From positions 523-64,522 of the forward strand of contig DATBRS010000237.1 in assembly GCA_036560185.1 (NCBI GenBank): a DNA stretch of 64,000 nt, in the 5' to 3' direction. Both the position numbers and the translations under genes were made by a program. Within the stretch, counting starts at the first letter, position 1; each line of letters opens with the position of its first letter. The stretch is from Myxococcota bacterium. GTDB taxonomy: Bacteria; Myxococcota_A; UBA9160; UBA6930. Of this stretch, positions 2,966-63,484 are shown in pieces. The notes beneath the pieces are model-generated. The model ran no database searches. It had not been told where the DNA came from and was given only the letters and a program-made list of their open reading frames with translations.

Positions 2966-4330
2966 CTACGAGCGGCGGCTCCGCGTTGTCAACGCGCGCA
3001 GCGCAGCTTCTTCCGCCGCGCGCATCACTTCTCCGAGCGGAAGCCGGCGCGCCTGGGCAATGCGCTTCGCGTCGTCGTACTCGGCGGAGGCGCTCGCTCG
3101 CCCCTGCGCGTCGTAGGCGAGCTTCACGCGCAGGCGTCCGTGGGGGGTCGCGACGCGTACGATCTCGCGCGGGAGGAGCAGGCGCTCCGCCTCCTGCACC
3201 CGCACGCCGAGCGAGCCGGTCTCGCGCAGCACGAGCTGCGCCAGCTCGCCGCGCCGGTGCGGCGGCGCGATCACCGTCAGCGCGTAGCCCGGCCGATTCT
3301 TCTTCATCTGGGCGTGGCTGAGGGCGACGTCGAGCGCCCCGGCCGCGAACAGCCGCTCCAGCGCGAGGTCGAAATGCTCGGGCACGAGGTCGTCGAGGTG
3401 CGCCGTGAGCACGCTCACGGTGTCGCGCAGCACGCCGCCGTCGTGGCCGAGCACGGCGCGCAGCACGTTCGGCATCGGGCCGGGGCGATCGTCGCCCGCC
3501 CCGTGGCCGATCGCATCGATCGTCAGCCCCGGCAGCGCGCACCACTCGTCGACGATCGTGCGCAGGATCGCGGCGCCGGTCGGCGTCACCGTCTCCCAGG
3601 CGACGGGCGCCGGCGCGACCGGCGCTCCCCGTAACAATTCGAGCACGGCCGGCGCTGGCAGCGGCAGGCGCCCGTGCGCCGTCTCGACCGTGCCGTGCCC
3701 GAGCGCGGCCGGCGTCGAGGTCACGCGCTCGACGCGCAGTAGCTCCAGCGCCAGCGCCGCGCCCGTGATGTCGACGATCGCGTCGAGCGCGCCCACCTCG
3801 TGGAAGTGAACGCGCGCGACCGGGACGTCGTGCACGCGCGCCTCGGCCTCCGCGAGCGCGGCGAAGATCGCCTGCGCGCGATCGCGCACCGCGGACGCGA
3901 GCTTCGCGCGCGCGAGCAAGCGGCGAATCTCGTCGTAGCGCCGGCCGCCGCCCACGTGCGTGTGCGCGTGATCGTGATCCCCGGCGTGGGAATGTGCGTG
4001 AGCGCCGTGGGTGTGCGAGCCGTCGCCGGCCGCGGCTCTGATACGTCGTGCCTTGGGACGCCTGCGCTCCACACTGCGCGCGATCACCTCGACGTAGCGC
4101 GCTGCGAGCGCGCCGCGTTTCACTCGGGTGACGCGCAGCCGATGCGCGATGCCGAGGCCCGCGAGCCCGGCCTCGAGCTCGCGCAGCGGCAGCCCGGCGT
4201 CGAGCAGCGCGCCGAGGAACATGTTCCCCGAGATCCCGGAGAACGTGTCGAGGTGGAGCACGGTGCGCGGCCGTGCGCCGGCGTGGCCCGGCGCCGCGAC
4301 GCGCGACTTCGGCTGGCGGCGCTTCGCCAC
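2966..4330 (-). CDS. larC: Nickel-pincer cofactor biosynthesis protein LarC (DUF111 nickel insertion / cyclometallase)
   Basis: 454 aa with a GTG start. N-terminal LDTFSGISGNMFLGALLDAGL. His-rich metal-binding stretch HTHGAHAHSHAGDHDHAHTH. Length is typical of LarC. Confidence 0.9.
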   Translation of the reverse strand: MAKRRQPKSRVAAPGHAGARPRTVLHLDTFSGISGNMFLGALLDAGLPLRELEAGLAGLGIAHRLRVTRVKRGALAARYVEVIARSVERRRPKARRIRAAAGDGSHTHGAHAHSHAGDHDHAHTHVGGGRRYDEIRRLLARAKLASAVRDRAQAIFAALAEAEARVHDVPVARVHFHEVGALDAIVDITGAALALELLRVERVTSTPAALGHGTVETAHGRLPLPAPAVLELLRGAPVAPAPVAWETVTPTGAAILRTIVDEWCALPGLTIDAIGHGAGDDRPGPMPNVLRAVLGHDGGVLRDTVSVLTAHLDDLVPEHFDLALERLFAAGALDVALSHAQMKKNRPGYALTVIAPPHRRGELAQLVLRETGSLGVRVQEAERLLLPREIVRVATPHGRLRVKLAYDAQGRASASAEYDDAKRIAQARRLPLGEVMRAAEEAALRALTTRSRRS

Positions 4331-4331
4331 G

Positions 4332-5081
4332 TCAGCTCCGATTGATCAGCGACGCGACCACGGCCGCGCCGAAGCCGTTGTCGATGTTCACGACCGAGAC
4401 GTTCGAGGCGCAGCTCGACAGCATCCCGAGCAGCGCCGCGAGCCCGCCATAAGAAGCGCCGTACCCGATGCTGGTCGGCACCGCGATCACCGGGCGCGCG
4501 ACCAGCCCGCCCACCACCGAGGGCAGCGCGCCCTCCATGCCCGCGATCGCGATCAGGACGCGCGCGGCGCGCAGCGCTTCCGACTCCGCGAGCAGGCGGT
4601 GCAGGCCCGCGACGCCGACGTCCGCGATCAGCTCGACCTTGTTGCCGAGCTTCGCCGCGACGGCGGCGGCCTCGCGCGCGACCGGCAGATCCGCGGTGCC
4701 CGCGCACACCACGACGATCGTGCCGACACCCGTGATCGCGACCTCCGCGGGCCCGTACCAGAGCAGGCGCGCGCCTGGGTCGTAGTCCCCGATCGGCTCG
4801 AGCGTGAGCACGCGCTCCGCGGCGGCGTGCTCGACACGCGTGACGAGCGCCGTCTGCCCGGCCGCGCGCAGCGTGCGCACGATGCTCGCGATCTGCTCCG
4901 GCGTCTTCCCCAGCCCGAACACCACCTCCGGCATGCCCTGCCGCAGCGCGCGATGCGTGTCGACGCGCGCGTGCTCGGAAGCGACGAAGGGAAGCTGCGC
5001 GAAGTGTTCGAGCGCGTCGTCCGTCGACAGCGCACCGTCTCGGACGGCTTCGAGCAGCGCGCGTACGCGATCGGGATTCAT
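4332..5081 (-). CDS. larB: Nickel-pincer cofactor biosynthesis protein LarB (PurE-like NaAD carboxylase/hydrolase)
   Basis: 249 aa. PurE-like core VVCAGTADLPVAREAA...AIAGMEGALPSVVGGL...VIAVPTSIGYGAS. The stop lies 1 nt before the larC start. Confidence 0.9.
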   Translation of the reverse strand: MNPDRVRALLEAVRDGALSTDDALEHFAQLPFVASEHARVDTHRALRQGMPEVVFGLGKTPEQIASIVRTLRAAGQTALVTRVEHAAAERVLTLEPIGDYDPGARLLWYGPAEVAITGVGTIVVVCAGTADLPVAREAAAVAAKLGNKVELIADVGVAGLHRLLAESEALRAARVLIAIAGMEGALPSVVGGLVARPVIAVPTSIGYGASYGGLAALLGMLSSCASNVSVVNIDNGFGAAVVASLINRS

Positions 5082-7879: not shown

Positions 7880-8329
7880 CTACTCGCCGCTCAGCGATCC
7901 CTCGACCAACATCAATGCGCGCGCCAGCAGGCGGCGCGGATCGAGCACGTTCAGCACGCGGCCCTCGTGCGGCCGGCGCTCCGCCACCGGGCTGTCGCTG
8001 TGCGACGGCGCGGCGCCGCCGGCCACGAGGCCCAAGATGCGGTCGACCGGCAATCCGTAGCGGTCGGGGTCGTCGGCATCGCCGGCGAGCACGAGCAGGC
8101 GCGTGGGCGCGCTCTCGCCCGAGAACTCGAGCAGTGCGCCGGCGAACACGACCGGCAAGGCATCGCCGTGGTGGTTCACCACGCCAAAGCTCGCGCGCGG
8201 CAGCATCGGCACCGGCGCGACACGCGCGCTCTCCGCGACCTCGACGACGCCGGAGATCGGCAGCGCGAACAGCGCCTCGCCGAGCTCGAAGGCGAGCAGA
8301 CGATTCTCGCTGACGTCGAGCGAGCTCAT
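7880..8329 (-). CDS. cheW: Chemotaxis coupling protein CheW
   Basis: C-terminal 149 aa of track ORF 7880..9613, starting at [25 protein letters not shown]. CheW-like fold sequence. Its ATG overlaps the mcp stop (ATGA, 8326..8329). Confidence 0.9.
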
Positions 8330-9591
8330 CGCGTGCCCCCTTGGCGCGCGCGCTGCGTGGCGTCGGCGAGCTCGCGCGCGACCGCAGCCAGCTCCCGCGA
8401 CGATTCCGCGATCTCCGCCATTGCCTCGATCTGTCGCTCCGCGGCGCCCGCCACGAGATCGACGGACGTGACGTGCGCCGAAGCGACTTCGGCGACCTCG
8501 CTGATCGCCGCCACCATGCGCTCGGCGCCCTGAGTCTGCACGTCGGCCTGCTCGAAGATCTCCTCGGCGCGGGACGACGCCTCGCCGACGGCGGCCTGAA
8601 TCTGCCCGAGCGAATGCGCGATCGTGTTCACGTCGTCGCGGCCTTCGGCGATCACCTGGCCCGAGTGGCGCATCTCGTCGGCGACGTTGTGCGTGTCGCT
8701 CTCGATCTCGCCGACCAGCTTCGAGATTTCGTCGGCGCTGCGCTGCGCGCTCTCGGCGAGCTTGCGAATCTCGTCGGCGACGACCGCGAAGCCGCGCCCC
8801 GCTTCGCCGGCGCGCGCGGCCTCGATCGACGCGTTCAGCGACAGCAGGTTGGTGCGCGACGCGACGCTCGTGATCAGCTCGGTGATCTGGTGCACGTGCC
8901 GCGTCTTCGCCTCGAGCTCGAAGACCATCTTGCCGGTGTTGTCCATGCGCTCGAACACGTTGCGCATCTTCTCGATCGCGAGGCGCGAGACGTCGACGCC
9001 GGAGTTCGCCTTCTGATTCGCCTCGGCCGCGAATCCGAACGCCTCGCGGGCGCGCGACGCGTTCGCCTCGATCGCCGAGGCGATCTCGGCGGACAGCCGC
9101 TGCACGTCGGCGAGCAGCGTCTTCTTGTTCTCGCTGCCCTTCGCGAGCTCGCCGATCGTCTCGGCGATCTCGCGCGCGGTCGCGTCGGCGCGCTTCCCGC
9201 CCGAGGCGAACCCGTCGACGGCGCGCTGCAGGCCTTCCGATACCGCCTGTGCGTCGCGCGAGAGCGCACCCAAGCGGTCGCCTAACAACGCGGCGCCCGC
9301 GGCCAGCTCGTGGGCCTCGTCTTCGACGCCGGAGGCCGCGCCCAGCGCGTCCAGCGCGGCGTAGTCCCCGCGCGACGCGCGGCGCACCAGCTGCGCGGCA
9401 TGCGCGTGCTCGCTGACGAGCCGGCTGCCCAGCGCCGCACCCGTCGCGCCGCCCACGATCACGGCGAGCGCGTTGAGCAGCGCCGCGTCGCCAGAAATCC
9501 CGAGCGCGTGCGCGAGCGTGGGCACGGCCAACGCCGTTCCGGCAGCCGCCAGCGAGCCGAGGGCGAACTTGTGGACGAGGGAGAGACGCAC
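8326..9591 (-). CDS. Methyl-accepting chemotaxis protein with a membrane hairpin and no periplasmic sensor domain
   Basis: Highly conserved MCP signalling core [35 protein letters not shown]. The upstream part of track ORF 8326..10062 overlaps thiL out of frame and is Arg/Ser-rich. The proposed start is the GTG at 9591 ([18 protein letters not shown]...). The start is uncertain. Confidence 0.85.
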
Positions 9592-10929: not shown

Positions 10930-13350
<2,421 letters not shown>

Positions 13351-16715: not shown

Positions 16716-18536
<1,821 letters not shown>

Positions 18537-18577
18537 CGCTGCCGCGCCCCCCACCGGCGCTCAGCGAGCGACGCCGG

Positions 18578-21715: not shown

Positions 21716-24289
21716 ATGACCGCCCCGGCCTACCGACGAGAAACGCTCGAAAACGGCCTCGTCGTGCTGGTTCGCGAGAGCCGCCTCGAGCCGGTCGCCG
21801 AGGTGCAGATCTGGGTCGACGTGGGTTCCGCGGACGAGCGCGATCACGAGCGCGGCCTGGCCCACTTCCACGAGCACATGCTGTTCAAGGGCACGCCGAC
21901 GCGCGGCGTCGGCGAGATCGCCGGCAGCGTCGAGGGCGTGGGCGGCGCGATCAACGCCTTCACCTCGTTCGACGCGACTTGTTATCACGCCACGCTGCCG
22001 GGCGACGCCGCGTTCGCCGGCTTCGACGTGCTCGCGGATGCGGTGCAGAACTCGCTCTTCGATCCCGCCGAGGTGAGCCGCGAGATCGAGGTCGTGCTAG
22101 AGGAGATCCGGCGCAGCGCGGACGATCCGGGCCACGTGCTCAACGACGAGGTCTTCGACACGGTCTACGCGGTGCATCCCTATCGCTTCCCGGTGCTCGG
22201 CAGTGCCGCGAGCGTTGCGGCCCTGACGCAGCAGAAGCTGCTGGCCTTCTACCGCCGCTGGTACACGCCGGAGCACATGGTGGTCGCGGCGGCGGGAGAC
22301 CTCGACGCAGACGCCTTCATCGCGCACGTGCGCGCGACCTTCGGCTCCGCGCAGCGCGGCGAGGCGCGCCGCTCGCGCGCCGCCGAGCCCGCGCAGCGCG
22401 GCGTGCGCGTGCGCGTCGCGCAGCGCCCGTTCGAGCGCGCTGCCTTCGAGCTGAGCTTCCCCGCCGTGCCGCTCACGCACCCCGACGCTCCGCTGCTCGA
22501 CCTGCTCGCCTACGCCCTCGGCGAGGGCGACAGCTCGCGCCTGAATCGGCGCGTGAAGGAAGAGCTCGGCGTGGCCGACCGCATCGATGCGGGTTGTTAT
22601 ACGCCGATCGACGCCGGCGTCTTCTCCGTCTCGGTGGACGCGGACGCCGAGCACGTGGAGCACGCGATCGCGGCCTCGATCGCGGAGACCGAGCGGCTGC
22701 GCCGCGAGCCGCTCGGCAGCGACGAGCTCGCGAAGGCGCGCCGCAACTTCCTGGCTTCGCGCGCCTGGGAGCGCGAGAGCGTCTCGGGCATGGCGCTCAA
22801 GCTCGGCAGCGCGCAGCTCACGACCGGCGACCCTGATTTCGAGGACGCGTATCTCGAGCGCATCGCGGGCGCGACGCGCGACGAGCTGTTGCGCGCAGCC
22901 AAGGAGTGGCTCGACCCGGGCTGCATGTCCGTGGTGGCCGTGCTGCCTTCGCAGGCGCCAGCGCTCGCGCCCGCCGCGCTCGAGGCAGCCGTGGCGACGG
23001 GCGTCTCTCGCACCGCGCGCCGCTTCGCCGCGCCGAGCCGCAGCGGCGCAGTGGGCGAGCGCGTGCACGCCTACACGCTGCCGAACGGGGTGCGCGCATT
23101 CGTGCTGCCGCGCCGCGAAGTGCCGGTCGTGGCGGTGCGCGCGGCGGCGCTCGGCGGGCAGCTCGCCGAGCGCGAGCAGACCGCCGGCCTCGGCAGCTTC
23201 CTCTCGGGCCTGTGGCTGCGCGGCACGGCCACGCGCAGCGCCGCCGAGTTCGCGCGCACGATCGAATCGCTCGCGGCGGACATCGACGCCTTCTCCGGGC
23301 GCAGCTCGCTCGGCCTCACGCTCGACTGCACGTCGGATTCCTTCGCCGAAGCGCTGCCGATCTGGGCCGAGGCCCTCGGCTTTCCCGCGTTCGACGAGGA
23401 GGAGACCGAACGCGAGCGCCGCGATGCGCTCGCCGCGCTCGACCGCCGCGCAGATCGCCTCGGCGCGCGCGCCTTCGACCTGTTCCAGCTCGCGCACTAC
23501 GAGCGGCACCCCTATCGGCTGCCGCTGCCCGGGACGAAGGACTCCGTCGCCAGCTTCGACGCCGCGGGCGTCGCGGCGCACCACGCGGCGCTCGTGCGCC
23601 CTGATAACTTGGTCGTGTCGGTGGTCGGCGACGTCGATCCGGACGAGGCCGCAGAGGCGCTCGCCCGCGAGCTCGCGGACCTCGAGCAGGACGACGCGAA
23701 GCCGCTCTCGCTGCCCGAGCCCGAGCCCGCGCCGCGCGAGATCCGGCGCGCGCACGAGCGCAAGGACCGCGCGCAGGCGCATCTCGTGCTCGGCTTCCGC
23801 GGCGTCGGCGTCGATGACCCGGATCGCGAGGCGCTCGACGTGCTCGCACAGATTCTCGCCGGCCAAGGCGGGCGCCTCTTCCTCGAGCTGCGCGATCGCC
23901 AGAGCCTCGCCTACAGCGTGAGCGCGACGAACATCGTCGGCTACGCGCCGGGCGCGTTCTGCGTGTACATCGCTACCGCGCCGGACAAGCTCGAGATCGC
24001 GCAGCGGGGAATTCTCAGCGAGTTGGAGCGCCTGCTGCAGAGCGCGCCCTCCGAGGACGAGGCAGAGCGCGCGCGGCGCTACCTGTGCGGAACCCACGCG
24101 ATCGCGCAGCAGCGCGGCGGGCAGCGCGCGCTCGCGATGGCGCTCGACGCGCGCTACGGCCGCGGCGTCGACGCGGACCGGCTCTTCCCGCAGCGCGTGC
24201 GCGCCGTGAGCGCCAGCGACTTGTTACGGGTCGCGCGCCGCTTCATCGACCTCGGCAAGTACACGATCGCGACGATCGGGCCCGCCTAG
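21716..24289 (+). CDS. M16 (pitrilysin/insulinase) family zinc peptidase, two fused M16 units
   Basis: 857 aa. Inverted zinc motif HxxEH in LAHFHEHMLFKGT. The second half repeats the M16 fold. Confidence 0.9.
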   Translation: MTAPAYRRETLENGLVVLVRESRLEPVAEVQIWVDVGSADERDHERGLAHFHEHMLFKGTPTRGVGEIAGSVEGVGGAINAFTSFDATCYHATLPGDAAFAGFDVLADAVQNSLFDPAEVSREIEVVLEEIRRSADDPGHVLNDEVFDTVYAVHPYRFPVLGSAASVAALTQQKLLAFYRRWYTPEHMVVAAAGDLDADAFIAHVRATFGSAQRGEARRSRAAEPAQRGVRVRVAQRPFERAAFELSFPAVPLTHPDAPLLDLLAYALGEGDSSRLNRRVKEELGVADRIDAGCYTPIDAGVFSVSVDADAEHVEHAIAASIAETERLRREPLGSDELAKARRNFLASRAWERESVSGMALKLGSAQLTTGDPDFEDAYLERIAGATRDELLRAAKEWLDPGCMSVVAVLPSQAPALAPAALEAAVATGVSRTARRFAAPSRSGAVGERVHAYTLPNGVRAFVLPRREVPVVAVRAAALGGQLAEREQTAGLGSFLSGLWLRGTATRSAAEFARTIESLAADIDAFSGRSSLGLTLDCTSDSFAEALPIWAEALGFPAFDEEETERERRDALAALDRRADRLGARAFDLFQLAHYERHPYRLPLPGTKDSVASFDAAGVAAHHAALVRPDNLVVSVVGDVDPDEAAEALARELADLEQDDAKPLSLPEPEPAPREIRRAHERKDRAQAHLVLGFRGVGVDDPDREALDVLAQILAGQGGRLFLELRDRQSLAYSVSATNIVGYAPGAFCVYIATAPDKLEIAQRGILSELERLLQSAPSEDEAERARRYLCGTHAIAQQRGGQRALAMALDARYGRGVDADRLFPQRVRAVSASDLLRVARRFIDLGKYTIATIGPA

Positions 24290-26105: not shown

Positions 26106-26181
26106 GGCCCGGTAGCTCAGTTGGTAGAGCACCGCACTGAAAATGCGGGTGTCGCCAGTTCGACTCTGGCCTGGGCCACCA
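26106..26181 (+). tRNA. tRNA-Phe (GAA), CCA encoded
   Basis: Hand-folded cloverleaf: acceptor GGCCCGG/CTGGGCC, D arm GCTC-AGTTGGTA-GAGC, anticodon stem CCGCA/TGCGG with loop CTGAAAA, T arm GCCAG-TTCGACT-CTGGC, discriminator A plus CCA. Confidence 0.97.
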
Positions 26182-26256
26182 TCTTCTCGCTCCGCAGCCT
26201 CCGGCGCCGCTCGACGGTCTGGCGCTCGGCCCGCAGCGTGGCTCTGCAAGCGACTG

Positions 26257-26634
26257 TTAGGCGGCGGTCCGGCTTCGACGTCTGCGCTGCCGGTACAGCA
26301 CGACGTACGCGGGGCCCACGACGACGCCAGCCATGGCGGCGAACACGACGCCACCGTACGGCGCCAGCGGTTCGTACACGTAGTGTTGGAGGAAGTGGCC
26401 CTCGCACACGGGTAGGCCCGCCAGCGCGCGCAGGGACTTCTCCCAGCCCGTGAACGGACACCGGTACGCGACGAAGGGGACGGACAGCGCCCAAAGGATG
26501 AGGGGCACGTGAATCCAGGCGAACCAGCGCCAGCGCAGCATGCCGTACGCGCTCGCGAAGGGAAGCGCGGTGACGAGTACATGCAGGCCAACGACTGCGA
26601 CGACTCCGAGGGCTGCCAGGAATCTGACGTCCAC
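26257..26634 (-). CDS. DUF2784-like small membrane protein
   Basis: 125 aa with 3-4 hydrophobic helices and a conserved-looking YRCPFTGWEKSLR motif. TAA stop. Confidence 0.65.
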   Translation of the reverse strand: MDVRFLAALGVVAVVGLHVLVTALPFASAYGMLRWRWFAWIHVPLILWALSVPFVAYRCPFTGWEKSLRALAGLPVCEGHFLQHYVYEPLAPYGGVVFAAMAGVVVGPAYVVLYRQRRRRSRTAA

Positions 26635-27725: not shown

Positions 27726-27781
27726 CGCGAGTACCTAACATGCCGGCAGCTCGGCGCCGCCGCTTCGATCGCTGCGTGCGA

Positions 27782-29569: not shown

Positions 29570-29588
29570 GGCGCTCGCTTGTTACGGC

Positions 29589-35266: not shown

Positions 35267-35296
35267 GGCGCGCGAGCTCGCGAGCTGAACGCGCGC

Positions 35297-39070: not shown

Positions 39071-39114
39071 GCGCGCGACTTTATCCCGGCGCCGGCGCGA
39101 ACGTCGGCGGTAGA

Positions 39115-39528
39115 GTGCGCGACATGATCCGCAGCGCGCGTCCCCTCCTGCTCGTCGCCGCCCTGCTCGCGCTCTCCGCGTGCGCGCGCGGGCAGGCGCC
39201 GTCCGGCGGGCCGGTTCAGCCCGGCGAGCTCGCGAGCGTGCTCGCGGGCGCGGATGCGCCGCTGCTGCTCGACGTGCGCACGCCCGACGAGTTCGCGCAG
39301 GGCCACGTGCCCGGCGCGACGCTGGTGCCGGTGCAGGAGCTCGAGGCGCGACTCGCGGAGCTGGACGCCTACAAGACGCGCGGCGTCGTCACGTACTGCG
39401 AAGTCGGCGGCCGCGCGAGCAAGGCTGCGGAGCTGCTGCGCGCCCACGGCTTCGCGAACGTGCGGCAGCTCGACGGCAGCATGAAGCGCTGGCGCGAGGA
39501 AGCGCGCGAGGTCGCTACCGGCTCGTGA
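39115..39528 (+). CDS. Rhodanese-domain lipoprotein (sulfurtransferase)
   Basis: 137 aa. Lipobox LALSAC. Active-site loop YCEVGGRAS. Confidence 0.85.
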   Translation: MRDMIRSARPLLLVAALLALSACARGQAPSGGPVQPGELASVLAGADAPLLLDVRTPDEFAQGHVPGATLVPVQELEARLAELDAYKTRGVVTYCEVGGRASKAAELLRAHGFANVRQLDGSMKRWREEAREVATGS

Positions 39529-39556
39529 GCGGCGGGGCAGCGCGCAGGGAAATCGC

Positions 39557-40606
39557 GTGAGAGCGTGGCGCGTCGTTCGTCACGACGCTCCGCGCTTGGC
39601 GCTCGCCCTCGCGGACGTGCCCGAGCCGGTGCCCGCAGCGGGGCAGCTGCGGGTCCGCGTCGCGACCACGGTCTGCAACTTCAACGAGGTCGACGGTTGT
39701 TACGGCCGCTACCTCACCGTGAATCCACCGCTGCCGTACACGCTCGGCATGGAGCTGTGCGGCGTGGTCGACGCGGCCGGCGCCGGCGCCGAGCGCTGGC
39801 TCGGCCGCCGCGTCACGACCTGCGCGGTCGGCGCGTTCGGCGCGCACGCCGAGGCGGCGCTCGTCGATCCGGCGATGACCTTCGACGCGCCCGCGGGCCT
39901 GGGCGACGTGCAGGCCGCCGCTCTCTACTTCCCGTTCCACGTCGGCTGGCTCGCGCTGCACGAGCGCGGCCGCCTGCAGCGCGGCGAGTGGCTGCTCGTG
40001 CACGCGGCCGCGGGCGGCGTCGGCTCCGCGGCGCTGCAGCTCGGTGTCGCGCACGGCGCGCGCGTGATCGCCACGGCGGGCTCGGCCGAGAAGCTCGCCT
40101 TCTGCCGCGAGCTCGGCGCGAGCGCAGCGCTCGACTATCGCAGCGGCGATCTCGCCGCCGCGCTGCTCGATGCGACCGGCGGCCACGGCCTCGACGTGGT
40201 CTGCGACCTCGTCGGCGGCAACACCACGCTCGCGACGCTGCCCGCGATGGCGCGCGGCGGACGGCTGGTGATGGCGGGCTTCTCGGGCGACATCGGCGCC
40301 GAAGATCGCGCGCTGTTCGCGCCGCGGCCGATCCTGTTCGGAAACTTCTCGGTGGGCGGCGTGATGCTCGCCTACCGCGAGGGCGCGACGAAGCTCGGCG
40401 GAGTGAATCTGCTGCCGCGAGCGCTCGGCGACGAAGTGCAGCGCGACCTGTTACGGCTACTCGCCGCCGGTGCGATCCGCCCGATCGTCGGCCGGGTGGC
40501 GTCCTTCCGCGAGCTGCCCGCGGAGCTCGAGCGGCTCGAAGCGCGCGCGACGATCGGACGCTCGGTGCTCGACTGGCGCGAGGCCTCCGCGCGAGCCGCG
40601 CTCTAG
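39557..40606 (+). CDS. NADPH:quinone oxidoreductase / zeta-crystallin-type MDR family protein
   Basis: 349 aa with a GTG start. MDR fold with the nucleotide motif VHAAAGGVGSAALQLG. Confidence 0.88.
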   Translation: MRAWRVVRHDAPRLALALADVPEPVPAAGQLRVRVATTVCNFNEVDGCYGRYLTVNPPLPYTLGMELCGVVDAAGAGAERWLGRRVTTCAVGAFGAHAEAALVDPAMTFDAPAGLGDVQAAALYFPFHVGWLALHERGRLQRGEWLLVHAAAGGVGSAALQLGVAHGARVIATAGSAEKLAFCRELGASAALDYRSGDLAAALLDATGGHGLDVVCDLVGGNTTLATLPAMARGGRLVMAGFSGDIGAEDRALFAPRPILFGNFSVGGVMLAYREGATKLGGVNLLPRALGDEVQRDLLRLLAAGAIRPIVGRVASFRELPAELERLEARATIGRSVLDWREASARAAL

Positions 40607-50091: not shown

Positions 50092-50862
50092 GTGAGGCGC
50101 ACGCTCCTCGAGCGCCTGGTCGCCCGCACGAACCCGCGCTGGATCGAGTCCTTCGCGCCGGTGCCCTACGAAATTGGACCTGGCTTGTGGTCCGTCGACC
50201 GCCTGCTCGAGATTCCTCTCGGTCCGCGCCTCGGTACGCGCACGCTGCTCGTCGAGCTGCCCGAGGGCGGCGTGCTCGCGTGGTCGCCGGTGCCCCTCGG
50301 AGGCGCGCTGCGCGAGCTCGTGGAGACGCGCGGCGGCGCGCGCTTCCTGGTCGCGCCGAACTCGTTCCACTACCTCGGGATCGGCGACTGGCAGCGCGCG
50401 TTCCCGAGCGCCGAGAGCTGGCTCGCGCCCGGCTTGCTCGCGCGCGTCGCCGGCGCGGCGGGGCGCGAGCTGCACGAAGGCGCCGCGACGCCGTTCGCCG
50501 CGCTGCTCCCGCATTGCGTGCTCGACTGCGGCCGCGGCGTCAGCGAGGTCGCGTTCCTGCACGCGCCCTCGCGCACGCTGCTGCTCGTCGACAGCGCATT
50601 CAACGTGCGCCACGTCGCGCGCCGGCGCGATCGCCTCGTCTGGGCTGCGGCCGGCGTGCTCGGCCGCTTCGGCCCGACGCCCACGGCGCGCGCGTTCCTA
50701 TTGCGCGACCGGGCTGCGGTCGGCGCGTGGATCGAGCGGCTGTGCGCGTGGCCGTTCGAGCGCGTGGTGATGGCGCACGGCGAGCCGCTCGGCGCGGGGC
50801 CGAGCGAGCTGCGCGCGGCGTTCGTGCGGTATCTCGACGACGCATCGCGGAGGGCGGCATGA
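50092..50862 (+). CDS. DUF4336-like protein
   Basis: 256-aa coherent ORF. LWSVDR...LLVELPEGGVLAWSPVP...FLVAPNSFHYL resembles DUF4336. Confidence 0.65.
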   Translation: MRRTLLERLVARTNPRWIESFAPVPYEIGPGLWSVDRLLEIPLGPRLGTRTLLVELPEGGVLAWSPVPLGGALRELVETRGGARFLVAPNSFHYLGIGDWQRAFPSAESWLAPGLLARVAGAAGRELHEGAATPFAALLPHCVLDCGRGVSEVAFLHAPSRTLLLVDSAFNVRHVARRRDRLVWAAAGVLGRFGPTPTARAFLLRDRAAVGAWIERLCAWPFERVVMAHGEPLGAGPSELRAAFVRYLDDASRRAA

Positions 50863-51332
50863 ACCGTTTCGAGCTGGTTGCGATCGCGCACGTTCAGGGC
50901 GCCCGTGCCGACGTGGAGGACGACTTCTGGGGCGGCGCGGAGTCGCGCCTCGTGCTGACCGACGTGGTGGAGGAGAGCGCCCTCGACGGCATCGAGACGT
51001 TCTCCCACGTCGAGGTGCTGTTCGTGTTCGACCGCGTCGAGGACGCGAAGATCATCCGCGGCGCCCGGCATCCCCGTAACAACGAGGCTTGGCCCAGCAC
51101 CGGCATCCTCGCGCAGCGCGCGAAGAATCGGCCCAACCGGCTCGGCAGCACGATCTGCCGCGTCGTGCGGCGCGAGGGGGGCGCGCTCGTCGTGCGCGAG
51201 CTCGACGCAGTGGAGGGCACGCCGGTGGTGGACATCAAGCCCGTGCTGCGCGAGTTCCTGCCGCGCGAGGACGTGCGGCAGCCGGCGTGGGCGACCGAGC
51301 TGATGCGCGCATACTGGAACGCGCCGCGCTGA
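50859..51332 (+). CDS. trmO: TsaA/TrmO-like (YaeB family) SAM-dependent tRNA methyltransferase
   Basis: 157 aa starting MNRFELVAIAHV. HPRNNEAWPSTGILAQRAKNRPNRLGST and GTPVVDIKP motifs. The ATG overlaps the upstream stop (ATGA). Confidence 0.82.
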   Translation: MNRFELVAIAHVQGARADVEDDFWGGAESRLVLTDVVEESALDGIETFSHVEVLFVFDRVEDAKIIRGARHPRNNEAWPSTGILAQRAKNRPNRLGSTICRVVRREGGALVVRELDAVEGTPVVDIKPVLREFLPREDVRQPAWATELMRAYWNAPR

Positions 51333-51373
51333 ACGGCGCTGTTACGCGATGCTGGGCGCGCCGGCCCCGAGCC

Positions 51374-54939: not shown

Positions 54940-56307
54940 TCACGCGAGCAGCGCGCGCGGATCGCCCGCGCGCGCCGTCAGCCGCCCGTCGCGCATCAGC
55001 TCGCGCGCTTCGAGCCAGCGCTCGAATTCGGGCGCTGGCCGCAGCGCGAGCAGCTCGCGCACCGCCGCGACGTCGTGATAGCTGGTGCTCTGGTAGTGCA
55101 GCATGCAGTCGTCGCCGAGCGGCACGCCCATGAAGTAGTTGCAGCCGGCGGCGGCGAGCAGCATCGCGCAGCTCTCGAGGTCGTTCTGATCCGCCTCCGC
55201 GTGGTTCGTGTAACAGACGTCCGCGCCCATCGGCACGCCGAGCAGCTTGCCCATGAAGTGGTCCTCGAGCGCCGCGCGCGCGATCTCGCGGGCGTCGTAC
55301 AGGTACTCGGGGCCGATGAAGCCGACGACGGTGTTCACCAGCAGCGGCGCGTAGCGGCGCGCGACTCCGTAACAACGCGCCTCGAGCGTCACTTGGTCGA
55401 CGCCCTCGTGCGCGTCGCTCGAGAGCTCCGAGCCCTGCCCCGTCTCGAAGTACCAGACGTGCGGCGTGCGCAGGCGCCCGCGCTCGCGCACGAGCGCGTC
55501 CGCTTCGCCGAGCAGCGCGAGGTCGATGCCGAACGCGCGATTGCCCTTCTCGCTGCCCGCCACCGACTGGAACACGAGATCGAGCGGCGCGCCGCGCTCG
55601 AACGCGCGCAGCTGCGTCGTCACGTGCGCCAGCACGCACGCGTGCGTCGGCACGGCGAGCGACGTCATCACCTCGTCGATCGCGCGCGCGATGCGCTCCA
55701 CGGTCTCGAGCCGATCCTCGACGGGATTCACGCCGATCAGCGCGTCGCCCGAGCCGTAGGCGAGGCCTTCGAGAATGGCGGCGCGAATGCCCTCGGCGGC
55801 GTCCGCCGGATGGTTGGGCTGGATGCGCGACGCGAGCCGCCCCGCGAGGCCGAGCGTCGTGCGCCCCCTCACCGCGACCGGCAGCCGCTTCGCGGCGAGC
55901 GCGAGATCGAGGTTCGAGCACAGCTTCGCGACCGCGGCGGCGTGCTCCGGCAAGAGCGCGCGGCGGAGCGGCGCGAGCGCATCCGGCGCGTCGAAGGCGC
56001 CCGCGAGCAGACGCTCGCGCAGCTCGCCGACGCCGAAGCCCGCGAGTGGGCGGAATGCCTCCGCGTCCTGCTCACCGAGGAACGCGCGCGTAAGCTCGTC
56101 GCGCTCCGGCGCGATCACCGGCTCCTCGACGAAGCGCGCGAGCGGAACCTCCGCGAGCGCGCGCTTCGCCGCGACGCGCTCCTCCGCGCTCGCCGCCGCG
56201 AGGCCTGCGAGCTGGTCGCCGCTCTTCGGCTCGTTCGCCTTGGCGAGCAGCTCGCGCAGATCGCGAAAGGCGAAGCCCGAGGCGGCGTAGCGCGGCATCG
56301 ACTCCAT
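54940..56307 (-). CDS. eutB: Ethanolamine ammonia-lyase large subunit
   Basis: 455 aa. The EutB sequence is recognisable over its full length (FRDLRELLAKANEPKSGD..., FETGQGSELS, NYFMGVPLGDD). Confidence 0.95.
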   Translation of the reverse strand: MESMPRYAASGFAFRDLRELLAKANEPKSGDQLAGLAAASAEERVAAKRALAEVPLARFVEEPVIAPERDELTRAFLGEQDAEAFRPLAGFGVGELRERLLAGAFDAPDALAPLRRALLPEHAAAVAKLCSNLDLALAAKRLPVAVRGRTTLGLAGRLASRIQPNHPADAAEGIRAAILEGLAYGSGDALIGVNPVEDRLETVERIARAIDEVMTSLAVPTHACVLAHVTTQLRAFERGAPLDLVFQSVAGSEKGNRAFGIDLALLGEADALVRERGRLRTPHVWYFETGQGSELSSDAHEGVDQVTLEARCYGVARRYAPLLVNTVVGFIGPEYLYDAREIARAALEDHFMGKLLGVPMGADVCYTNHAEADQNDLESCAMLLAAAGCNYFMGVPLGDDCMLHYQSTSYHDVAAVRELLALRPAPEFERWLEARELMRDGRLTARAGDPRALLA

Positions 56308-57490: not shown

Positions 57491-57496
57491 CGAGCG

Positions 57497-60838: not shown

Positions 60839-61903
60839 ATGGCTCCGAACGGACCGCGCGCCAACCCGCCCAACCGCTTCGAGCGCGTCCACGTCGCGGA
60901 CATGCCCGAGCTCGGCTTCGGCGCGAGCCCCGACGACCCGCCGGAGGATCCGCGCACCGAGCTGCTGGTGGATCCCTCGCGCAGCGTGGTCGCCAGCAAC
61001 GACAGCCCGGACTTGGGTTTTCGCGCGAGCGTGAACCCGTATCGCGGCTGCCAACACGCCTGCACTTATTGTTACGCGCGCCCCACCCACGAGTATCTCG
61101 GCTACTCCGCCGGCCTCGACTTCCAGACCAAGATCCTGGTGAAGCCGCGGGCAGCCGAGCTGTTACGGAAGCAGCTGATGTCGCCGGCGTGGAAGCCGCA
61201 GGTCGTCGCGCTCTCCGGCGTCACCGATCCGTACCAGCCGGCCGAGCGCAGGCTGCGCATCACGCGCGGCTGCCTCGAGGTGCTGGCCGAGTTCCGCAAT
61301 CCCGTCGTGATCGTGACCAAGGGCTTCTTGGTGACGCGCGATCTCGACCTGCTCGCCGAGCTCGCGCGCGTGAACGCGGCCTCGGTGATGCTCTCGATCA
61401 CGACGCTCGACCCGGAGCTGCAGCGCAAGATGGAGCCGCTCGCGTCGCCGCCGACGAAGCGGCTCGCGGCGATCGACGCGCTCGCGCGCGCCGGCGTGCC
61501 GGTCGGCGTGATGACCGCGCCGGTGATTCCCGGCCTAACAGATCACGAGCTGCCGGCGATCCTTCAGGCGGCAGCGAACGCCGGCGCGAGCAGCGCCGGG
61601 CTCGTCGTGCTGCGCCTGCCCCACGGCGTGAAGGAGCTGTTCTCGGACTGGCTCGCGCAGCACTACCCGGAGCGCCGCGAGAAGGTGCTGAACCGCCTGC
61701 GCGCGCTCCACGGCGGGGCGCTCTACGACGCGCGCTTCGCCCATCGACAGCGCGGCAGCGGCGAGTTCGCGGAGCAGATCCAGGCGCTCTTCGAGCTGGG
61801 CCTGCGGCGCGCGCGGCTCGCGCGCCGCAGCGCGGAGCTGTCGACCGCGGCGTTCCGGCGGCCGGGCGTGGCGGATCAGCTGTCGCTGTTCGGCGGCGCC
61901 TGA
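60839..61903 (+). CDS. PA0069-family radical SAM protein
   Basis: 354 aa. NPPNRFE N-terminus and the CxxxCxxC cluster motif in YRGCQHACTYCYARP. Confidence 0.85.
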   Translation: MAPNGPRANPPNRFERVHVADMPELGFGASPDDPPEDPRTELLVDPSRSVVASNDSPDLGFRASVNPYRGCQHACTYCYARPTHEYLGYSAGLDFQTKILVKPRAAELLRKQLMSPAWKPQVVALSGVTDPYQPAERRLRITRGCLEVLAEFRNPVVIVTKGFLVTRDLDLLAELARVNAASVMLSITTLDPELQRKMEPLASPPTKRLAAIDALARAGVPVGVMTAPVIPGLTDHELPAILQAAANAGASSAGLVVLRLPHGVKELFSDWLAQHYPERREKVLNRLRALHGGALYDARFAHRQRGSGEFAEQIQALFELGLRRARLARRSAELSTAAFRRPGVADQLSLFGGA

Positions 61904-61924
61904 GTCGACGGCGGGCAGCAAACG

Positions 61925-63484
61925 CTACGCGTCGTTCTCGCCCTCGCGCTTCAGGCGCGCCAGGAACTCGGCATCGATCCGCGAGCGCACGGTGCGGCGG
62001 TCGATGCCGATGCGGCGCGCGGTCTCCTCGTACGAGCCGGCTTGGTGGTACACGAGCGTGGCGTAGCGCGAGAGCAGCGCGTCGGCGTCGATGCCGCCGC
62101 GCGCGACCTCGCCCAATAACTCGGCGGTGGGGCCGTGTGTGGGCAGGGTGCTCGCGCGTACGGCGGGCGACGCGGGCGTGTAGCCGCCGCGGATCACGAC
62201 GTTGCGCACGCACTGCTCGAGCTCCCGCACGTTGCCGGGCCACGCGTAGTCGCGCGGCAGGTTCGACTCGATGAAGGCGTGCACCTCGCGCGCGATCGCG
62301 TCGCCCTCGTCGTCACCGAACAGCCGGCGCGCGATCACGATCACGAAGTTGCGCAGGTCGTCGGGGTGATCGTCGAGCTGCGCGCGCAGGGTCGGCGTGG
62401 CGACCAGATCGGCGCACAGCCGGTAGTAGAAGTCCTCGCGGAAGCGGCCCGCGGCGAGCTCGGCCGCGAGGTCGCGGTTGGTGGCGGCGATGATCTTGCC
62501 ATCGAAGCGCCGCGCGCGTGTCTCGCCGAGCCGCTCGAAGGCGCGCGTCTGCAGCACCCGTAACAGCTTCACCTGGATCTCGGGCGAGACCTCGCCGATC
62601 TCGTCGAGGAAAACGGCGCCGCCGCGTCCGCACGCTTCGAGCCAGCCCTCGCGGTCGTCGACGGCGCCGGTGAAGGCGCCGCGGCGATGCCCGAACAGCT
62701 CCGACTCGATCAGCGTCGGCGTGAGCGCCGACAGGTTCAGCGCGAAGAAGCGCTTCTCGGGTGCGTGCGCGAACGCCTTCGCCTCGGGTTCGAAGGGGAT
62801 GAACTGCGACTGGCCGATCGCGCGCGCGACCAGCTCCTTGCCCGTGCCGGAAGGCCCGAGGATCAGCGTCGGGACGTCGTGCATGTGCCCGACCAGTGCG
62901 CGGCGATAGCGGCGCCGATCGCGCGTGAAGATCGACTGCCAGGCGTCGGCGCGCAGCTTCGCGGCCGGCAGCGAGGCGCCGTACAAGTGCCGGAACACGA
63001 AGTGGAAGGCGCGCCGCGTCTGGTAGCCGTACGCGAACAGGAACGCGGCGTCCGGCCGCGCCAGACCCGGCAGCGCCAGGTCGCGCTGGATCTCCTCGGC
63101 GAAGTCGTCCCAGCAGGCGACGGGCCGCGGCCGCTCCGTGTCGCGGTCGAGCGTCGCGCGCCAGTCGCGCTCGTAGCGCGAGTAGACGCTGTAGAGGACG
63201 ACGTCCTCGTACAGCGCGGCCTCGTCGGCGGCCGGCTTGATGCCGCGCACGATTCGATCGCGGGCGCGCTCGCGCAGCTCTCGCGCCGCGGCCTCGAGCC
63301 GCAACAAGTTCGGGTTCACGCCGTCGAGATCGGCGTCGACGTTCCACACCACGCGGCCCGCGACGAAGCCGTCGCCCAGCACTTCGCGCTCGTGCGCGAT
63401 CCGCTCCGGCACGAACGGATTCACGTGGGTCAACTTCGAGAGCGCCTCGGCGATCCTGCGCTCGCCGTCGTCGAAGAGGCTCAT
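61925..63484 (-). CDS. Sigma-54-dependent transcriptional activator (bEBP) with an unrecognised N-terminal domain
   Basis: ATG at 63484 (MSLFDDGERRI). AAA+ core with GPSGTGKE, ESELFGH and GAFTGA. C-terminal Fis-type HTH ETARRIGIDRRTVRSRI. The first ~215 aa match no domain I recognise. Confidence 0.9.
   Translation of the reverse strand: MSLFDDGERRIAEALSKLTHVNPFVPERIAHEREVLGDGFVAGRVVWNVDADLDGVNPNLLRLEAAARELRERARDRIVRGIKPAADEAALYEDVVLYSVYSRYERDWRATLDRDTERPRPVACWDDFAEEIQRDLALPGLARPDAAFLFAYGYQTRRAFHFVFRHLYGASLPAAKLRADAWQSIFTRDRRRYRRALVGHMHDVPTLILGPSGTGKELVARAIGQSQFIPFEPEAKAFAHAPEKRFFALNLSALTPTLIESELFGHRRGAFTGAVDDREGWLEACGRGGAVFLDEIGEVSPEIQVKLLRVLQTRAFERLGETRARRFDGKIIAATNRDLAAELAAGRFREDFYYRLCADLVATPTLRAQLDDHPDDLRNFVIVIARRLFGDDEGDAIAREVHAFIESNLPRDYAWPGNVRELEQCVRNVVIRGGYTPASPAVRASTLPTHGPTAELLGEVARGGIDADALLSRYATLVYHQAGSYEETARRIGIDRRTVRSRIDAEFLARLKREGENDA

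Follow-up and report, generated by a model that had tools for sequence, protein, structure and literature searches.

The window examined here (the whole 64-kb stretch of DNA that was analysed) comes from an uncultured Myxococcota lineage with ~72% GC and carries, among others, larC, lon, dnaJ, grpE, plsB and eutB. The gene names proposed for it in an initial annotation (larC, lon, M16, QOR, radical SAM, bEBP and eutB) are backed by Pfam. Scattered over the window is a short AT-rich word, TTGTTACGG in full and TGTTACGG in its octamer form, whose TGTTA core is found at the positions given below, where related loci are denoted by L numbers.

The word and its abundance in the window

3629..3637, minus strand: TTGTTACGG, sense in larC, GAA TTG TTA CGG (E-L-L-R)
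9283..9287, minus: core TGTTA (TTGTTAGG), sense in an MCP-type gene, GCG TTG TTA GGC
11503..11510, minus: TGTTACGG, sense in lon, GAC GTG TTA CGG (D-V-L-R)
13189..13193, minus: core TGTTA (CGCTTGTTAT), sense in lon, CGC TTG TTA TTG; kept in L081 and L084
15860..15864, minus: core TGTTA (GACTTGTTAT), sense in dnaJ, GAC TTG TTA TGC; kept in L081 and L083
18644..18655, minus: CGCTTGTTACGA, sense in grpE, CGC TTG TTA CGA (R-L-L-R); TGTTA kept in L081, L083 and L084, each with the full TTGTTACGG there
21979..21984, plus: TTGTTAT, sense in the M16 peptidase gene, ACT TGT TAT (T-C-Y); kept in 4/4 aligned relatives
22594..22599, plus: TTGTTAT, sense in the M16 peptidase gene, GGT TGT TAT (G-C-Y); TGCTA in three relatives
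24221..24229, plus: TTGTTACGG, sense in the M16 peptidase gene, GAC TTG TTA CGG; common to L084, TGCTG in other relatives
26255..26259, plus: core TGTTA (CTGTTAGG), non-coding, ~75 nt downstream of tRNA-Phe
27736..27740, minus: core TGTTA (ATGTTAGG), intergenic between convergent genes, adjoining a terminator-like hairpin but outside it
29576..29587, plus: CGCTTGTTACGG, in the 19-nt spacer between the TonB-dependent receptor and luciferase-like monooxygenase genes (both minus-strand), antisense to the operon; kept in L081 at 17458
39697..39705, plus: TTGTTACGG, sense in the QOR-type gene, GGT TGT TAC GGC (G-C-Y-G); TGT CGC in L001
40449..40456, plus: TGTTACGG, sense in the QOR-type gene, CTG TTA CGG; ATC CTG CGC in L001
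42547..42556, plus: CGCTTGTTAC, sense in a glyoxalase-fold gene, CGC TTG TTA CTG; CTG CTG CTC in L003
45166..45177, minus: CGCTTGTTACGG, sense in an alpha/beta-hydrolase-like gene, GCT TGT TAC GGG (A-C-Y-G); kept in L001, L002 and L003
45459..45466, minus: TGTTACGG, sense in the alpha/beta-hydrolase-like gene, CTG TTA CGG; TTG TTA CGA in L003, CTG CTA CGG in L002, CTC TTG in L001
47790..47799, plus: CGCTTGTTAC, sense in plsB, CGC TTG TTA CGC
51074..51082, minus: TTGTTACGG, antisense in the plus-strand gene 50859-51332, CGT AAC AAC (R-N-N)
51340..51345, plus: TGTTAC (CTGTTACGC), non-coding, 8 nt past the stop codon of gene 50859-51332
55211..55216, minus: TGTTAC, sense in eutB, GTC TGT TAC ACG; TGTTA kept in L001, Cys-Tyr also in E. 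coli and Listeria EutB
55367..55375, minus: TTGTTACGG, sense in eutB, CGT TGT TAC GGA; TGC TAC in L001, Listeria EutB likewise C-Y-G
61069..61075, plus: TTGTTAC, sense in the radical SAM gene, TAT TGT TAC GCG
61161..61168, plus: TGTTACGG, sense in the radical SAM gene, CTG TTA CGG
61536..61540, minus: core TGTTA, antisense in the radical SAM gene, CTA ACA (L-T)
62558..62565, minus: TGTTACGG, sense in the sigma-54 activator gene, CTG TTA CGG

There are 12 copies of the octamer TGTTACGG in the window, vs. an expectation of 0.16 (maximum 1) in 100 dinucleotide-preserving shuffles and of 1.87 +/- 0.85 (maximum 5) in 1000 codon-aware shuffles, in which synonymous codons were shuffled inside each gene with the rare TTA and TGT codons retained; the observed count was reached in 0/100 and 0/1000 shuffles, respectively. 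The strong over-representation claimed by the initial annotation, at the level of nucleotides rather than peptides, is thus upheld under a codon-aware null. Its tallies needed only minor revision: all coordinates given for 11 octamers are correct, while the minus-strand copy at 51074-51081 had been missed, and its 26 TGTTA/TAACA sites are part of 60 rather than ~57 TTA/TAA trinucleotides (the runner-up xxTTA context accounts for 8). The five copies of CGCTTGTTAC lie where they had been placed, and the near copies at 13189, 15860, ~21980 and ~22595 are real TGTTA sites. Both described reading frames are also borne out, as xTG TTA accounts for 13 of the 16 in-frame TTA codons and TGT TAY for seven of the nine Cys-Tyr dipeptides. 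Upstream of TTGTTACGG there is a weak preference for R at position -3, with CGC or GAC frequent immediately before the word. The octamer is present at ~1 per 5 kb and the TGTTA core at ~1 per 2.5 kb, with Poisson-like spacing across the 64 kb (CV 0.94).

Distribution among relatives and orientation

The word is restricted to a narrow Myxococcota lineage, in whose genes it is hundreds-fold over-represented. The motif-bearing group (173 kb, made up of the window and seven related loci) contains 31 octamers and 22 exact nonamers, vs. at most 7 copies of each single-mismatch variant, and both forms are absent from 879 kb of 71 more distant, equally GC-rich relatives. Some sister genomes hold few copies or none (only ~1.2 TGTTA per 10 kb in the L001 and L165 MAG; zero in 60 kb of the gpsA-locus sisters), and word density between sister genomes spans 0 to 16 per 10 kb. 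Within a motif-bearing species the word is also present in unlinked DNA (a non-syntenic 10 kb of L084; L171/L172). All of these sequences are metagenome assemblies, a circumstance that would favor chance, a compositional side effect or a sequencing/assembly artefact as the source of the pattern. Such an origin is nevertheless scarcely credible given the shuffling results, the zero count in equally GC-rich relatives, and the recurrence of the same sites, with intact reading frames, in an independent NCBI MAG contig (99.8% identical) and two JGI contigs from different studies and assemblers.

The initial annotation described the word as co-oriented with transcription, suggesting an mRNA- or transcription-level signal confined to the sense strand (an sRNA seed target, a site for an RNase or an RNA-binding protein, or a pause at rare codons). 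In the window this co-orientation is evident: the 12 octamers comprise 10 sense, one antisense (51074) and one intergenic (29580) copy, and sense copies make up 10/11 genic octamers and 20/22 genic TGTTA sites. The window bias exceeds that of non-window sites (Fisher p = 0.006) and the prediction from relatives (p ~0.04, by our own estimate). In addition, CGUAACAAG, a sequence universal to 16S rRNA, is the complement of the sense RNA CUUGUUACG. Outside the window, however, the bias is absent, with 17 sense vs. 14 antisense among orthology-collapsed (unique) sites not present in the window; antisense copies are upheld by independent JGI gene calls in L171 and by tblastn-oriented plsB in L003. 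The relatives use antisense spellings (CGT AAC A for Arg-Asn, ATA ACA for Ile-Thr, and CTA ACA) as well as a third sense frame, GTT ACG, and the antisense octamer occupies 30% of Arg-Asn contexts. Since several reading frames are used, no codon-based mechanism fits. Moreover, the conserved intergenic copy at 29580 lies on the antisense strand of its operon, sites show no positional preference inside genes (relative positions 0.06 to 0.97), and tRNA-Phe is the sole RNA family matched in Rfam. Altogether, an mRNA- or translation-level role appears highly improbable.

The absence of a replication-type strand polarity in the window, another point of the initial annotation, is confirmed by 12 plus- and 14 minus-strand core sites (5 and 7 for the octamer). 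In the pooled clade, 20 of 31 octamers (65%) are on the G-rich strand, as predicted from gene-strand bias and coding opportunity. Intergenic sites (6/75) equal the 7% intergenic fraction, and a search among the sites for inverted pairs and motif-containing hairpins found none. The pooled sense share is 70%, compared with 76% expected from the protein positions able to host the word by synonymous recoding. The use of sense and antisense orientations and of all usable frames, the lack of strand skew and the conserved antisense intergenic copy argue for recognition in DNA, one of the options listed by the initial annotation. Thus, the word very probably acts and is maintained at the DNA level, its sense bias being mostly a by-product of coding: most window copies are sense, with TTA/TGT codons, mostly because occupancy tracks the cost in silent changes. 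A small excess of sense copies in the window is left over after this coding explanation.

Origin and persistence of sites within genes

Comparison of orthologous positions showed that the word evidently enters genes by point substitutions at protein-tolerated positions, largely as silent codon changes. The routes read from the alignments are TGC TAC to TGT TAC at Cys-Tyr, CTG CTG CGS to YTG TTA CGG at Leu-Leu-Arg and, on the opposite strand, CGC AAC to CGT AAC at Arg-Asn. Relatives carry ordinary codons at these positions (CTG CTG CGC, ATC CTG CGC, ATC ACC and others); at the plsB site (47790), all six aligned relatives lack the word (CTG/ATC, then CTG/CTC/CTT, then CGC/CGA), so that the non-motif state is ancestral. 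Octamer occupancy drops as the number of required silent changes rises (CYG 6/7, xRN 8/27, [LVM]LR 13/120, VT 2/57 and 0/44). V-T contexts are used less than expected, without a clear reason. The Cys-Tyr dipeptide itself is in excess in the window (9 observed vs. 2.7 expected), and CYG and RNN are up 6-fold and 10-fold, respectively, vs. distant relatives, on small counts with redundancy.

Once formed, the word tends to stay. Of 38 window-to-relative comparisons, 19 retain TGTTA, roughly double the rate at which other rare synonymous states persist (21-25% for other rare A or T third positions; p = 0.002 at CY-type and 1e-4 at LL-type sites). For the single silent site in TGY-TAC the odds ratio is ~36, which would imply a population-scaled bias of ~3.6. 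The YTGYTRCGG family as a whole is enriched 3.7-fold, which argues that its precursors are not merely undergoing conversion; together with the ordinary codons at orthologous positions, this marks the word as an attractor rather than a decay product. A directional force creates and keeps the word, in spite of the strong pressure exerted by GC content and codon usage.

Many word-creating changes are transitions (CTG CTG to TTG TTA, TGC to TGT, CGC to CGT), and a C-to-T hotspot had been among the initial suggestions. It is contradicted by undepleted precursors, by the lack of enrichment of single-step intermediates, by conserved sites and by the contribution of transversions. One specific form of an enzyme-driven ratchet, deamination of 5mC at GCWGC to GTWAC, was rejected, as GCTGC is not depleted (1023 vs. 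599 per 100 kb), neither GTTGC nor GCTAC, the products of a single step, is enriched, and TGCTA (9) is rarer than TGTTA (26). A broader version would have a functionless word driven by such a ratchet, in which a lineage-specific methyltransferase, mismatch endonuclease or similar mobile system repairs heteroduplexes toward the word, as was proposed for HIP1. The patchiness and the 0 to 16 per 10 kb range between sisters would suit a mobile, readily lost enzyme, and the many transitions likewise fit a ratchet. A mismatch-specific enzyme, however, normally fixes one position, while here all nine positions act as attractors, with transversions and amino-acid changes among the contributing steps (e.g., ATC ACC to ATA ACA, CGC to CGG, Ile to Leu), and a contiguous non-palindromic 9-bp word is an unusual methyltransferase target. 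We regard such a ratchet as unlikely.

Candidate sources of the directional force

Another possible, although doubtful, explanation is that the word is the site of a chromosome-maintenance protein, Chi-like (signalling a stop or recombination to a RecBCD/AddAB-type enzyme), HIP1-like or related to nucleoid architecture, with its density held by ordinary selection. A non-palindromic 8-9-mer at ~1 per 5 kb is near the density of Chi in E. coli, and the sites are conserved beyond neutral expectation, an argument earlier used for selection on HIP1. For HIP1, too, the variant in use changes from one genome to a close relative. The pooled 20/31 octamers on the G-rich strand (the putative leading strand, inferred from GC skew and gene-strand bias) would be compatible with a Chi-like 75% skew; yet the window lacks strand polarity, and coding already predicts the pooled share. 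Chi is built from common codons and its specificity is normally stable across families, whereas the word consists of the rarest codons, is patchy between sister species and has Poisson-like spacing. Furthermore, one extra site among about a thousand would be worth only tiny selection, yet codon preference is overridden.

We tentatively favor as the best explanation that the directional force is biased uptake or recombination, with the word serving as a self-DNA tag of the DUS/USS type. In its behavior the word resembles the DNA-uptake tags of Neisseria and Haemophilus and is unlike an mRNA signal. The excess of the word equals in magnitude the 15- to 300-fold over-representation reported for HIP1, and uptake sequences have likewise been described as strikingly abundant, at hundreds to thousands per genome. 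Their frame and orientation biases are set by codon cost, the peptides that they spell become about twice as frequent (a parallel to the excess of CY, CYG and RNN here), and the dominance of sense or antisense copies varies (PMC2817400; PMC2346458). Some features count against this reading, namely the small share of intergenic copies, lower density, patchiness, under-used V-T and the extra sense bias of the window. About half of DUS/USS copies are in terminators, often as inverted pairs, unlike the few intergenic and unpaired copies found here. DUS/USS density is ~1 per 1 kb, above that of the word, and these sequences are stable across whole families, whereas the word is patchy even between sister genomes.

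The word is very probably a lineage-specific one, recognized in double-stranded DNA and accumulated throughout the chromosomes of this small group. Under the uptake-tag reading, a putative DNA-uptake or recombination component would bind it preferentially, and word-carrying alleles would be over-transmitted through transformation and homologous recombination. By such molecular drive, the word may spread whether or not an individual copy brings any benefit.

Abundance and shape of the word

At the GC content of the window (72.5%), the octamer TGTTACGG is found 12 times as compared with 0.16 copies expected from dinucleotide-preserving shuffles. The initial annotation had counted eleven copies, all with correct coordinates, the total having missed an extra minus-strand copy at 51074. 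The second form of the word, CGCTTGTTAC, occurs 5 times, exactly where that annotation had placed it, and the share attributed there to the core, TGTTA/TAACA, is upheld, with 26 of the 60 TTA/TAA trinucleotides of the window falling within it and none of the next xxTTA contexts exceeding 8. The claimed over-representation also survives a codon-aware null, in which synonymous codons were shuffled within each gene and which is deliberately conservative in that it keeps the TTA and TGT codons created by the motif: 1.87 ± 0.85 octamers are expected (maximum of 5 in 1000 shuffles) vs. the 12 observed. Thus, the over-representation of the word in the window stands.

A codon-usage model called 57 genes, covering 94% of the window, and Pfam agrees with the gene names given in the initial annotation. 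Among the 26 core sites, 22 are genic (20 sense and 2 antisense with respect to transcription of the host gene) and a further 4 are non-coding, and no preference for a position within genes was seen in the window. Thirteen of the sense sites read xTG TTA and account for 13 of the 16 TTA codons of the window, while seven read TGT TAY and account for 7 of its 9 Cys-Tyr dipeptides, a dipeptide for which 2.7 occurrences would be expected. The tripeptides CYG and RNN are 6-fold and 10-fold commoner, respectively, than in distant relatives, in counts that are small and partly redundant.

Alignment of 75 TGTTA sites yielded the consensus R-N-T-TGTTA-C-G-G, with further flanks being uninformative. In the pooled motif-bearing loci (the window, three relatives found via PlsB, L001-L003, and four found via the M16 peptidase, L081-L084), the exact nonamer TTGTTACGG occurs 22 times vs. 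at most 7 times for each single-mismatch variant. It is asymmetric rather than palindromic, its reverse complement CCGTAACAA being different and its flanks asymmetric as well. A peptide-level motif was rejected, as the same nucleotides encode LLR, CYG and VT, and RN, IT and LT on the other strand, and so was a −35-like promoter (TTGTTA resembles TTGACA), as the logo contains no conserved −10-like element downstream. A full-text literature search for the word itself returned primer sequences only.

Several side observations concern the same sequences. Read as its reverse complement, CTTGTTACG becomes CGTAACAAG, the site of primer 1492R in a part of 16S rRNA that is universally conserved and close to the 3' end (checked in E. 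coli 16S), so that every rrn operon holds an 8-of-9 match to the word, probably by coincidence. The HIP1 octamer of cyanobacteria, GCGATCGC, is part of CGCGATCGCG, which is mildly (~3-fold) enriched in the motif-bearing group (72 copies in 173 kb vs. ~23 at the distant-relative rate), and GATCGC precedes two TTGTTACG sites. The only Rfam family found in the window is tRNA-Phe, the tRNA-Phe(GAA) at 26106-26181 being called by ARAGORN and Rfam alike; an ARAGORN call of tRNA-Thr(CGT) at 7933-8020 (plus strand), inside a CheW/MCP coding region and with no Rfam support, is probably a false positive.

Orientation, strand and genomic surroundings

The co-orientation of the word with genes had been taken in the initial annotation as a sign of an mRNA- or transcription-level signal. 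We counted, per orientation and frame, the protein positions at which a synonymous change of codons could yield the word. Within the window, the core has 821 such positions in sense and 262 in antisense, TAA closing one antisense frame, and about 76% of sites would thus be expected in sense without any RNA-level effect. Occupancy by the octamer follows the fewness of the silent changes needed, not the strand:

Occupancy of encodable positions by the octamer in the pooled clade
Cys-Tyr-Gly, sense: 6/7
x-Arg-Asn, antisense: 8/27
[Leu/Val/Met]-Leu-Arg, sense: 13/120
Val-Thr, sense: 2/57
Val-Thr, antisense: 0/44

After collapsing orthologous sites, nine loci contain 60 unique TGTTA sites (37 sense, 16 antisense and 7 intergenic), and those missing from the window divide into 17 sense vs. 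14 antisense. The antisense copies in L171, a further locus of a relative, rest on JGI's own gene calls, and those in L003 lie inside a tblastn-oriented plsB. One intergenic copy (29576-29587), conserved in L081, occupies a 19-nt spacer between two minus-strand genes and is, therefore, antisense to the operon. A sense-only RNA element is rejected by these antisense and intergenic-antisense copies in relatives, and we regard an RNA-level signal in general as very improbable. Coding constraints and small numbers together explain most of the gene-sense bias of the window; nevertheless, the window is somewhat more sense-biased than its relatives (Fisher p = 0.006), a residual beyond this explanation.

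With respect to DNA strand, the core is divided into 12 plus and 14 minus copies in the window and the octamer into 5 and 7, and no skew is seen in any locus, orientations being mixed in each (64 kb and short loci). This bears out the earlier argument against a replication-oriented signal, and Chi/KOPS-type polarity was rejected for the window. In the pooled set, 20 of 31 octamers lie on the G-rich strand, as expected from gene-strand bias; a KOPS-level skew is excluded, and a Chi-level skew of 75% would still be compatible with the fragments. Intergenic sites (6 of 75) match the 7.2% of DNA that is intergenic. An association with terminators or hairpins and an arrangement in inverted pairs were both looked for and not found: no inverted pair is closer than 263 nt and no motif lies in a hairpin stem. 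Regular or periodic spacing was likewise not seen at short range, the spacing over 64 kb being Poisson-like (CV 0.94, same as random).

The longest TGTTA-free stretch, 29589-39696 (10.1 kb), carries genes for a TonB-dependent receptor, DUF455, a beta-lactamase-fold protein, SDR, phosphodiesterase, HIT and rhodanese. It is possibly more recently acquired DNA; a gap of this length is not significant alone, having about a one-in-three chance among 25 Poisson-spaced gaps. The annotated genes, representing about two-thirds of the window, are of a housekeeping character (che cluster, larBC, lon, hrcA-grpE-dnaK-dnaJ, plsB, eutB and others) and include no competence, restriction-modification or recombination gene; among them, the word has no local genetic partner. 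Beside larC/larB, a 78-aa ORF (2728-2964, minus strand) has precomputed Pfam hits to PF00808 (CBFD_NFYB_HMF) and PF00125 (Histone) in the gene table of L163, and may encode a bacterial histone-fold protein of this lineage of Myxococcota.

Distribution among relatives and origin of sites

A scan of the window's PlsB against one genome per species retrieved uncultured Myxococcota loci, of which only the three closest (L001-L003; 86-87% protein identity, ~80% nucleotide identity, syntenic) carry the word, its absence extending to all relatives at 71% identity or less, including equally GC-rich ones. When metagenomes were scanned with the M16 peptidase, the picture was the same, with the word present in L081-L084 (79-84% identity) and absent from everything at 63% identity or less. 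The window and these seven loci together (173 kb) contain 31 copies of TGTTACGG and 22 of TTGTTACGG vs. none of either in 71 more distant high-GC relatives (879 kb). The word is the only strongly discriminating k-mer, other top k-mers differing ~2-fold as CG-repeat composition effects.

Carriers are confined to relatives at amino-acid identities of at least about 79%, and the distribution is patchy even among these. TGTTA density per 10 kb amounts to 4.1 in the window, 6.6 in strong relatives, 1.5 in weak relatives, 0 in gpsA-locus sisters and 0.33 in distant relatives. The MAG holding L001 and a further locus, L165, has only ~1.2 TGTTA per 10 kb over a total of 40 kb, although its distance from the window equals that of L003, whose load is 16.5 per 10 kb. 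The word also occurs in DNA unlinked to the window, as exemplified by 3 sites in a non-syntenic 10 kb of L084 and by 7 TGTTA, 2 of them exact nonamers, in 11.9 kb around gpsA in a species resembling L084 (L171/L172, 95% GpsA identity); the same neighbourhood in sisters at 82-85% identity has none in 60 kb. Seven of the Myxococcota-type loci (L001, L004, L012, L013, L015, L017 and L021) come from records titled 'uncultured Spirochaetales/Spirochaetaceae bacterium', likely a taxonomic mislabel of these MAGs.

The assemblies come from different studies and assemblers, and the same sites are found in near-identical contigs (99.4-99.96% identity to the window), one in the NCBI MAG GCA_044450705.1 and two from JGI. 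The word is, therefore, no artefact; we consider the chance of an artefact or a random accumulation close to negligible. Specifically, a long-read methylation basecalling artefact was rejected given contig names suggestive of short-read assemblers, unrelated studies, shared sites and intact frames. Motif sites show no polymorphism among these contigs, an uninformative result.

Orthologous positions reveal how the sites arise. In plsB, CTG CTG CGC of relatives corresponds to TTG TTA CGC in the window, in the QOR-type gene ATC CTG CGC corresponds to CTG TTA CGG, and in eutB TGC TAC corresponds to TGT TAC; in L002 and L003, the changes include GGC GTC AGC to GGT GTT ACG, ATC ACC to ATA ACA, and CGC AAC to CGT AAC. 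The site-creating changes are point substitutions without indels, and the transversions and amino-acid replacements among them show that many different starting points lead to the word, which thus acts as an attractor. A C-to-T hotspot, as proposed initially, fails in view of these contributions, of a 3.7-fold increase of the YTGYTRCGG family and of the conservation of sites. Double deamination of 5mC at GCWGC, giving GTWAC (GCTGC to GTTAC), is appealing in that a change of CTGCTGC to CTGTTAC would suit either strand. It was rejected as well: GCTGC shows no depletion (1023 per 100 kb here vs. 599 in relatives), neither single-step product (GTTGC, GCTAC) is in excess, TGCTA is less frequent (9) than TGTTA (26), and the mechanism does not account for the flanks T(-1) and CGG. 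A broader methyltransferase- or repair-driven ratchet would be favoured by the patchy distribution; however, all nine positions and transversions are involved, and we hold it to be quite improbable.

Once present, the sites tend to persist. TGTTA is kept in 19 of 38 window-to-relative comparisons vs. 21-25% for other rare A or T third-codon positions, with an excess retention at both Cys-Tyr (p = 0.002) and Leu-Leu (p = 1e-4) sites, and three to five genomes have several sites in common, located in grpE, dnaJ, lon, M16 and the alpha/beta-hydrolase gene. In EutB, one of the word-hosting Cys-Tyr pairs is conserved in both E. coli and Listeria enzymes and the other is Cys-Tyr in Listeria and Asn-Tyr in E. 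coli; at both sites the word entered by a silent TGC to TGT change. Over silent TGY-TAC sites, the preference for TGT in the clade relative to distant relatives reaches an odds ratio of 36 (11 to 6 vs. 3 to 59). In the distant relatives, which lack the word, Cys-Tyr with TAT is mostly TGT TAT (12) over TGC TAT (7), the counts with TAC being 3 TGT TAC vs. 59 TGC TAC; this TGT-TAT pairing is a rare-codon pair association independent of the motif. The gene dnaK (16716-18554, minus strand; 612 codons) holds no copy, and its operon neighbours grpE and dnaJ each have a conserved one, a single case that fits exclusion of a rare-codon word from very highly expressed genes.

Comparison with known genomic words

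Overall, recognition of the word takes place at the level of DNA and irrespective of orientation; the word forms from a variety of precursors, is retained in the face of strong GC and codon pressure, and occurs in a few closely related species only. Short words at hundreds of times their expected frequency are known in two kinds only: the uptake sequences found in two families of proteobacteria, and HIP1, whose function is still debated after 30 years. Recent surveys list HIP1 for cyanobacteria only and uptake-enhancing sequences for Neisseriaceae and Pasteurellaceae only, and our literature search found no published report of a hyper-abundant word in Myxococcota.

The uptake sequences (DUS of Neisseriaceae and USS of Pasteurellaceae, here DUES) resemble this word in being short (9-12 nt), non-palindromic, sharply defined and dramatically above expectation, in occupying both strands without replication polarity, and in being lineage-specific (cf. 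DUS 'dialects'), with an origin by point mutation and partial conservation between related species. They also enter coding regions via tolerant codon contexts, with strong frame and orientation biases and raised frequencies of the encoded peptides; in the known cases these biases differ between species and track codon cost, and the encoded-peptide frequency is about doubled (PMC2817400; PMC2346458). Against membership in the uptake family, intergenic terminators and inverted pairs hold no excess of the word (about half of known DUES lie in intergenic terminators, often as inverted-repeat pairs), its density is several-fold (~5-fold) lower, and its occurrence varies between sister species instead of extending to a whole family. 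It also differs in consisting of the rarest codons that a 72% GC genome has, and its host belongs to a phylum without a known uptake sequence. In DUES, preferential uptake or transformation goes through a cognate receptor (ComP in Neisseria). Read as its reverse complement (CCGTAACAAGCG), the extended word has ACAAGCG in common with ACAAGCGGTC, a USS of the Apl type, an overlap regarded as coincidence.

Another reading is that selection keeps the word as a protein-binding site, in the manner of Chi or HIP1. HIP1 and the word have a 15- to 300-fold over-representation inside and between genes in common, and HIP1 is similar also in that its orthologous sites are conserved beyond codon conservation, it gives no sign of a peptide, RNA or gene-regulatory role, and it is variant or absent in closely related genomes. 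This combination of conservation, lack of gene-level function and variability between close relatives speaks for such a reading, and a modest Chi-like skew would still be compatible with these fragments. However, HIP1 is a palindrome containing methyltransferase sites and is phylum-wide, in contrast to the asymmetric TTGTTACGG found in few species only. The periodicity of HIP1 runs over 10-90 kb; for the word, the 64 kb of the window give short-range spacing, which is Poisson-like. Like the word, Chi sites and KOPS/AIMS octamers are 8-mers that are not palindromes and lie scattered through genes, about one every 5-10 kb. They are defined by a replication-tied strand bias, whereas this word shows none beyond the gene-orientation expectation, and its over-representation is far larger and runs against codon preference. 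On this evidence, we judge a Chi- or HIP1-like protein-binding word unlikely.

In its overall behaviour, the word may work most like an uptake or self-recognition tag, a tentative reading under which we would not yet file it. The force acting on it would be biased DNA uptake followed by homologous recombination, as with DUS/USS. Biased uptake plus recombination is the one well-established mechanism pulling all positions of an asymmetric word to consensus, on both strands and in a lineage-specific manner, and the coding-region behaviour of DUS/USS matches this word. Moreover, a thousand-odd near-worthless copies overriding codon preference to the extent seen at TGY-TAC sites would be easier to explain by transmission bias than by site-by-site selection. 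It is conceivable, although on balance doubtful, that a third word for DNA uptake or self-recognition, the first from Myxococcota, has evolved here recently and independently of those in Neisseriaceae and Pasteurellaceae. Sisters with high, low and zero load coexist; if this reading is true, comparative genomics could pinpoint the receptor or enzyme reading TTGTTACGG, and one could follow directly how a genome-wide tag is born and decays.

The finding adds a new asymmetric word in an unrelated, uncultured and very GC-rich lineage, where it imposes the rarest codons (TTA, TGT, CGT and ATA) and apparently alters amino acids. The imposed rare codons, along with the existence of close relatives that lack the word, make this lineage a natural experiment on the origin of such a word, its readers and its rate of decay. 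Practical implications include a sensitive marker for binning and for distinguishing native from acquired DNA in these organisms, as well as caution for codon-usage or 'TTA-regulon' readings in high-GC genomes. If the word is an uptake tag, sequence-selective natural transformation would be predicted in Myxococcota and may aid their genetic tractability.
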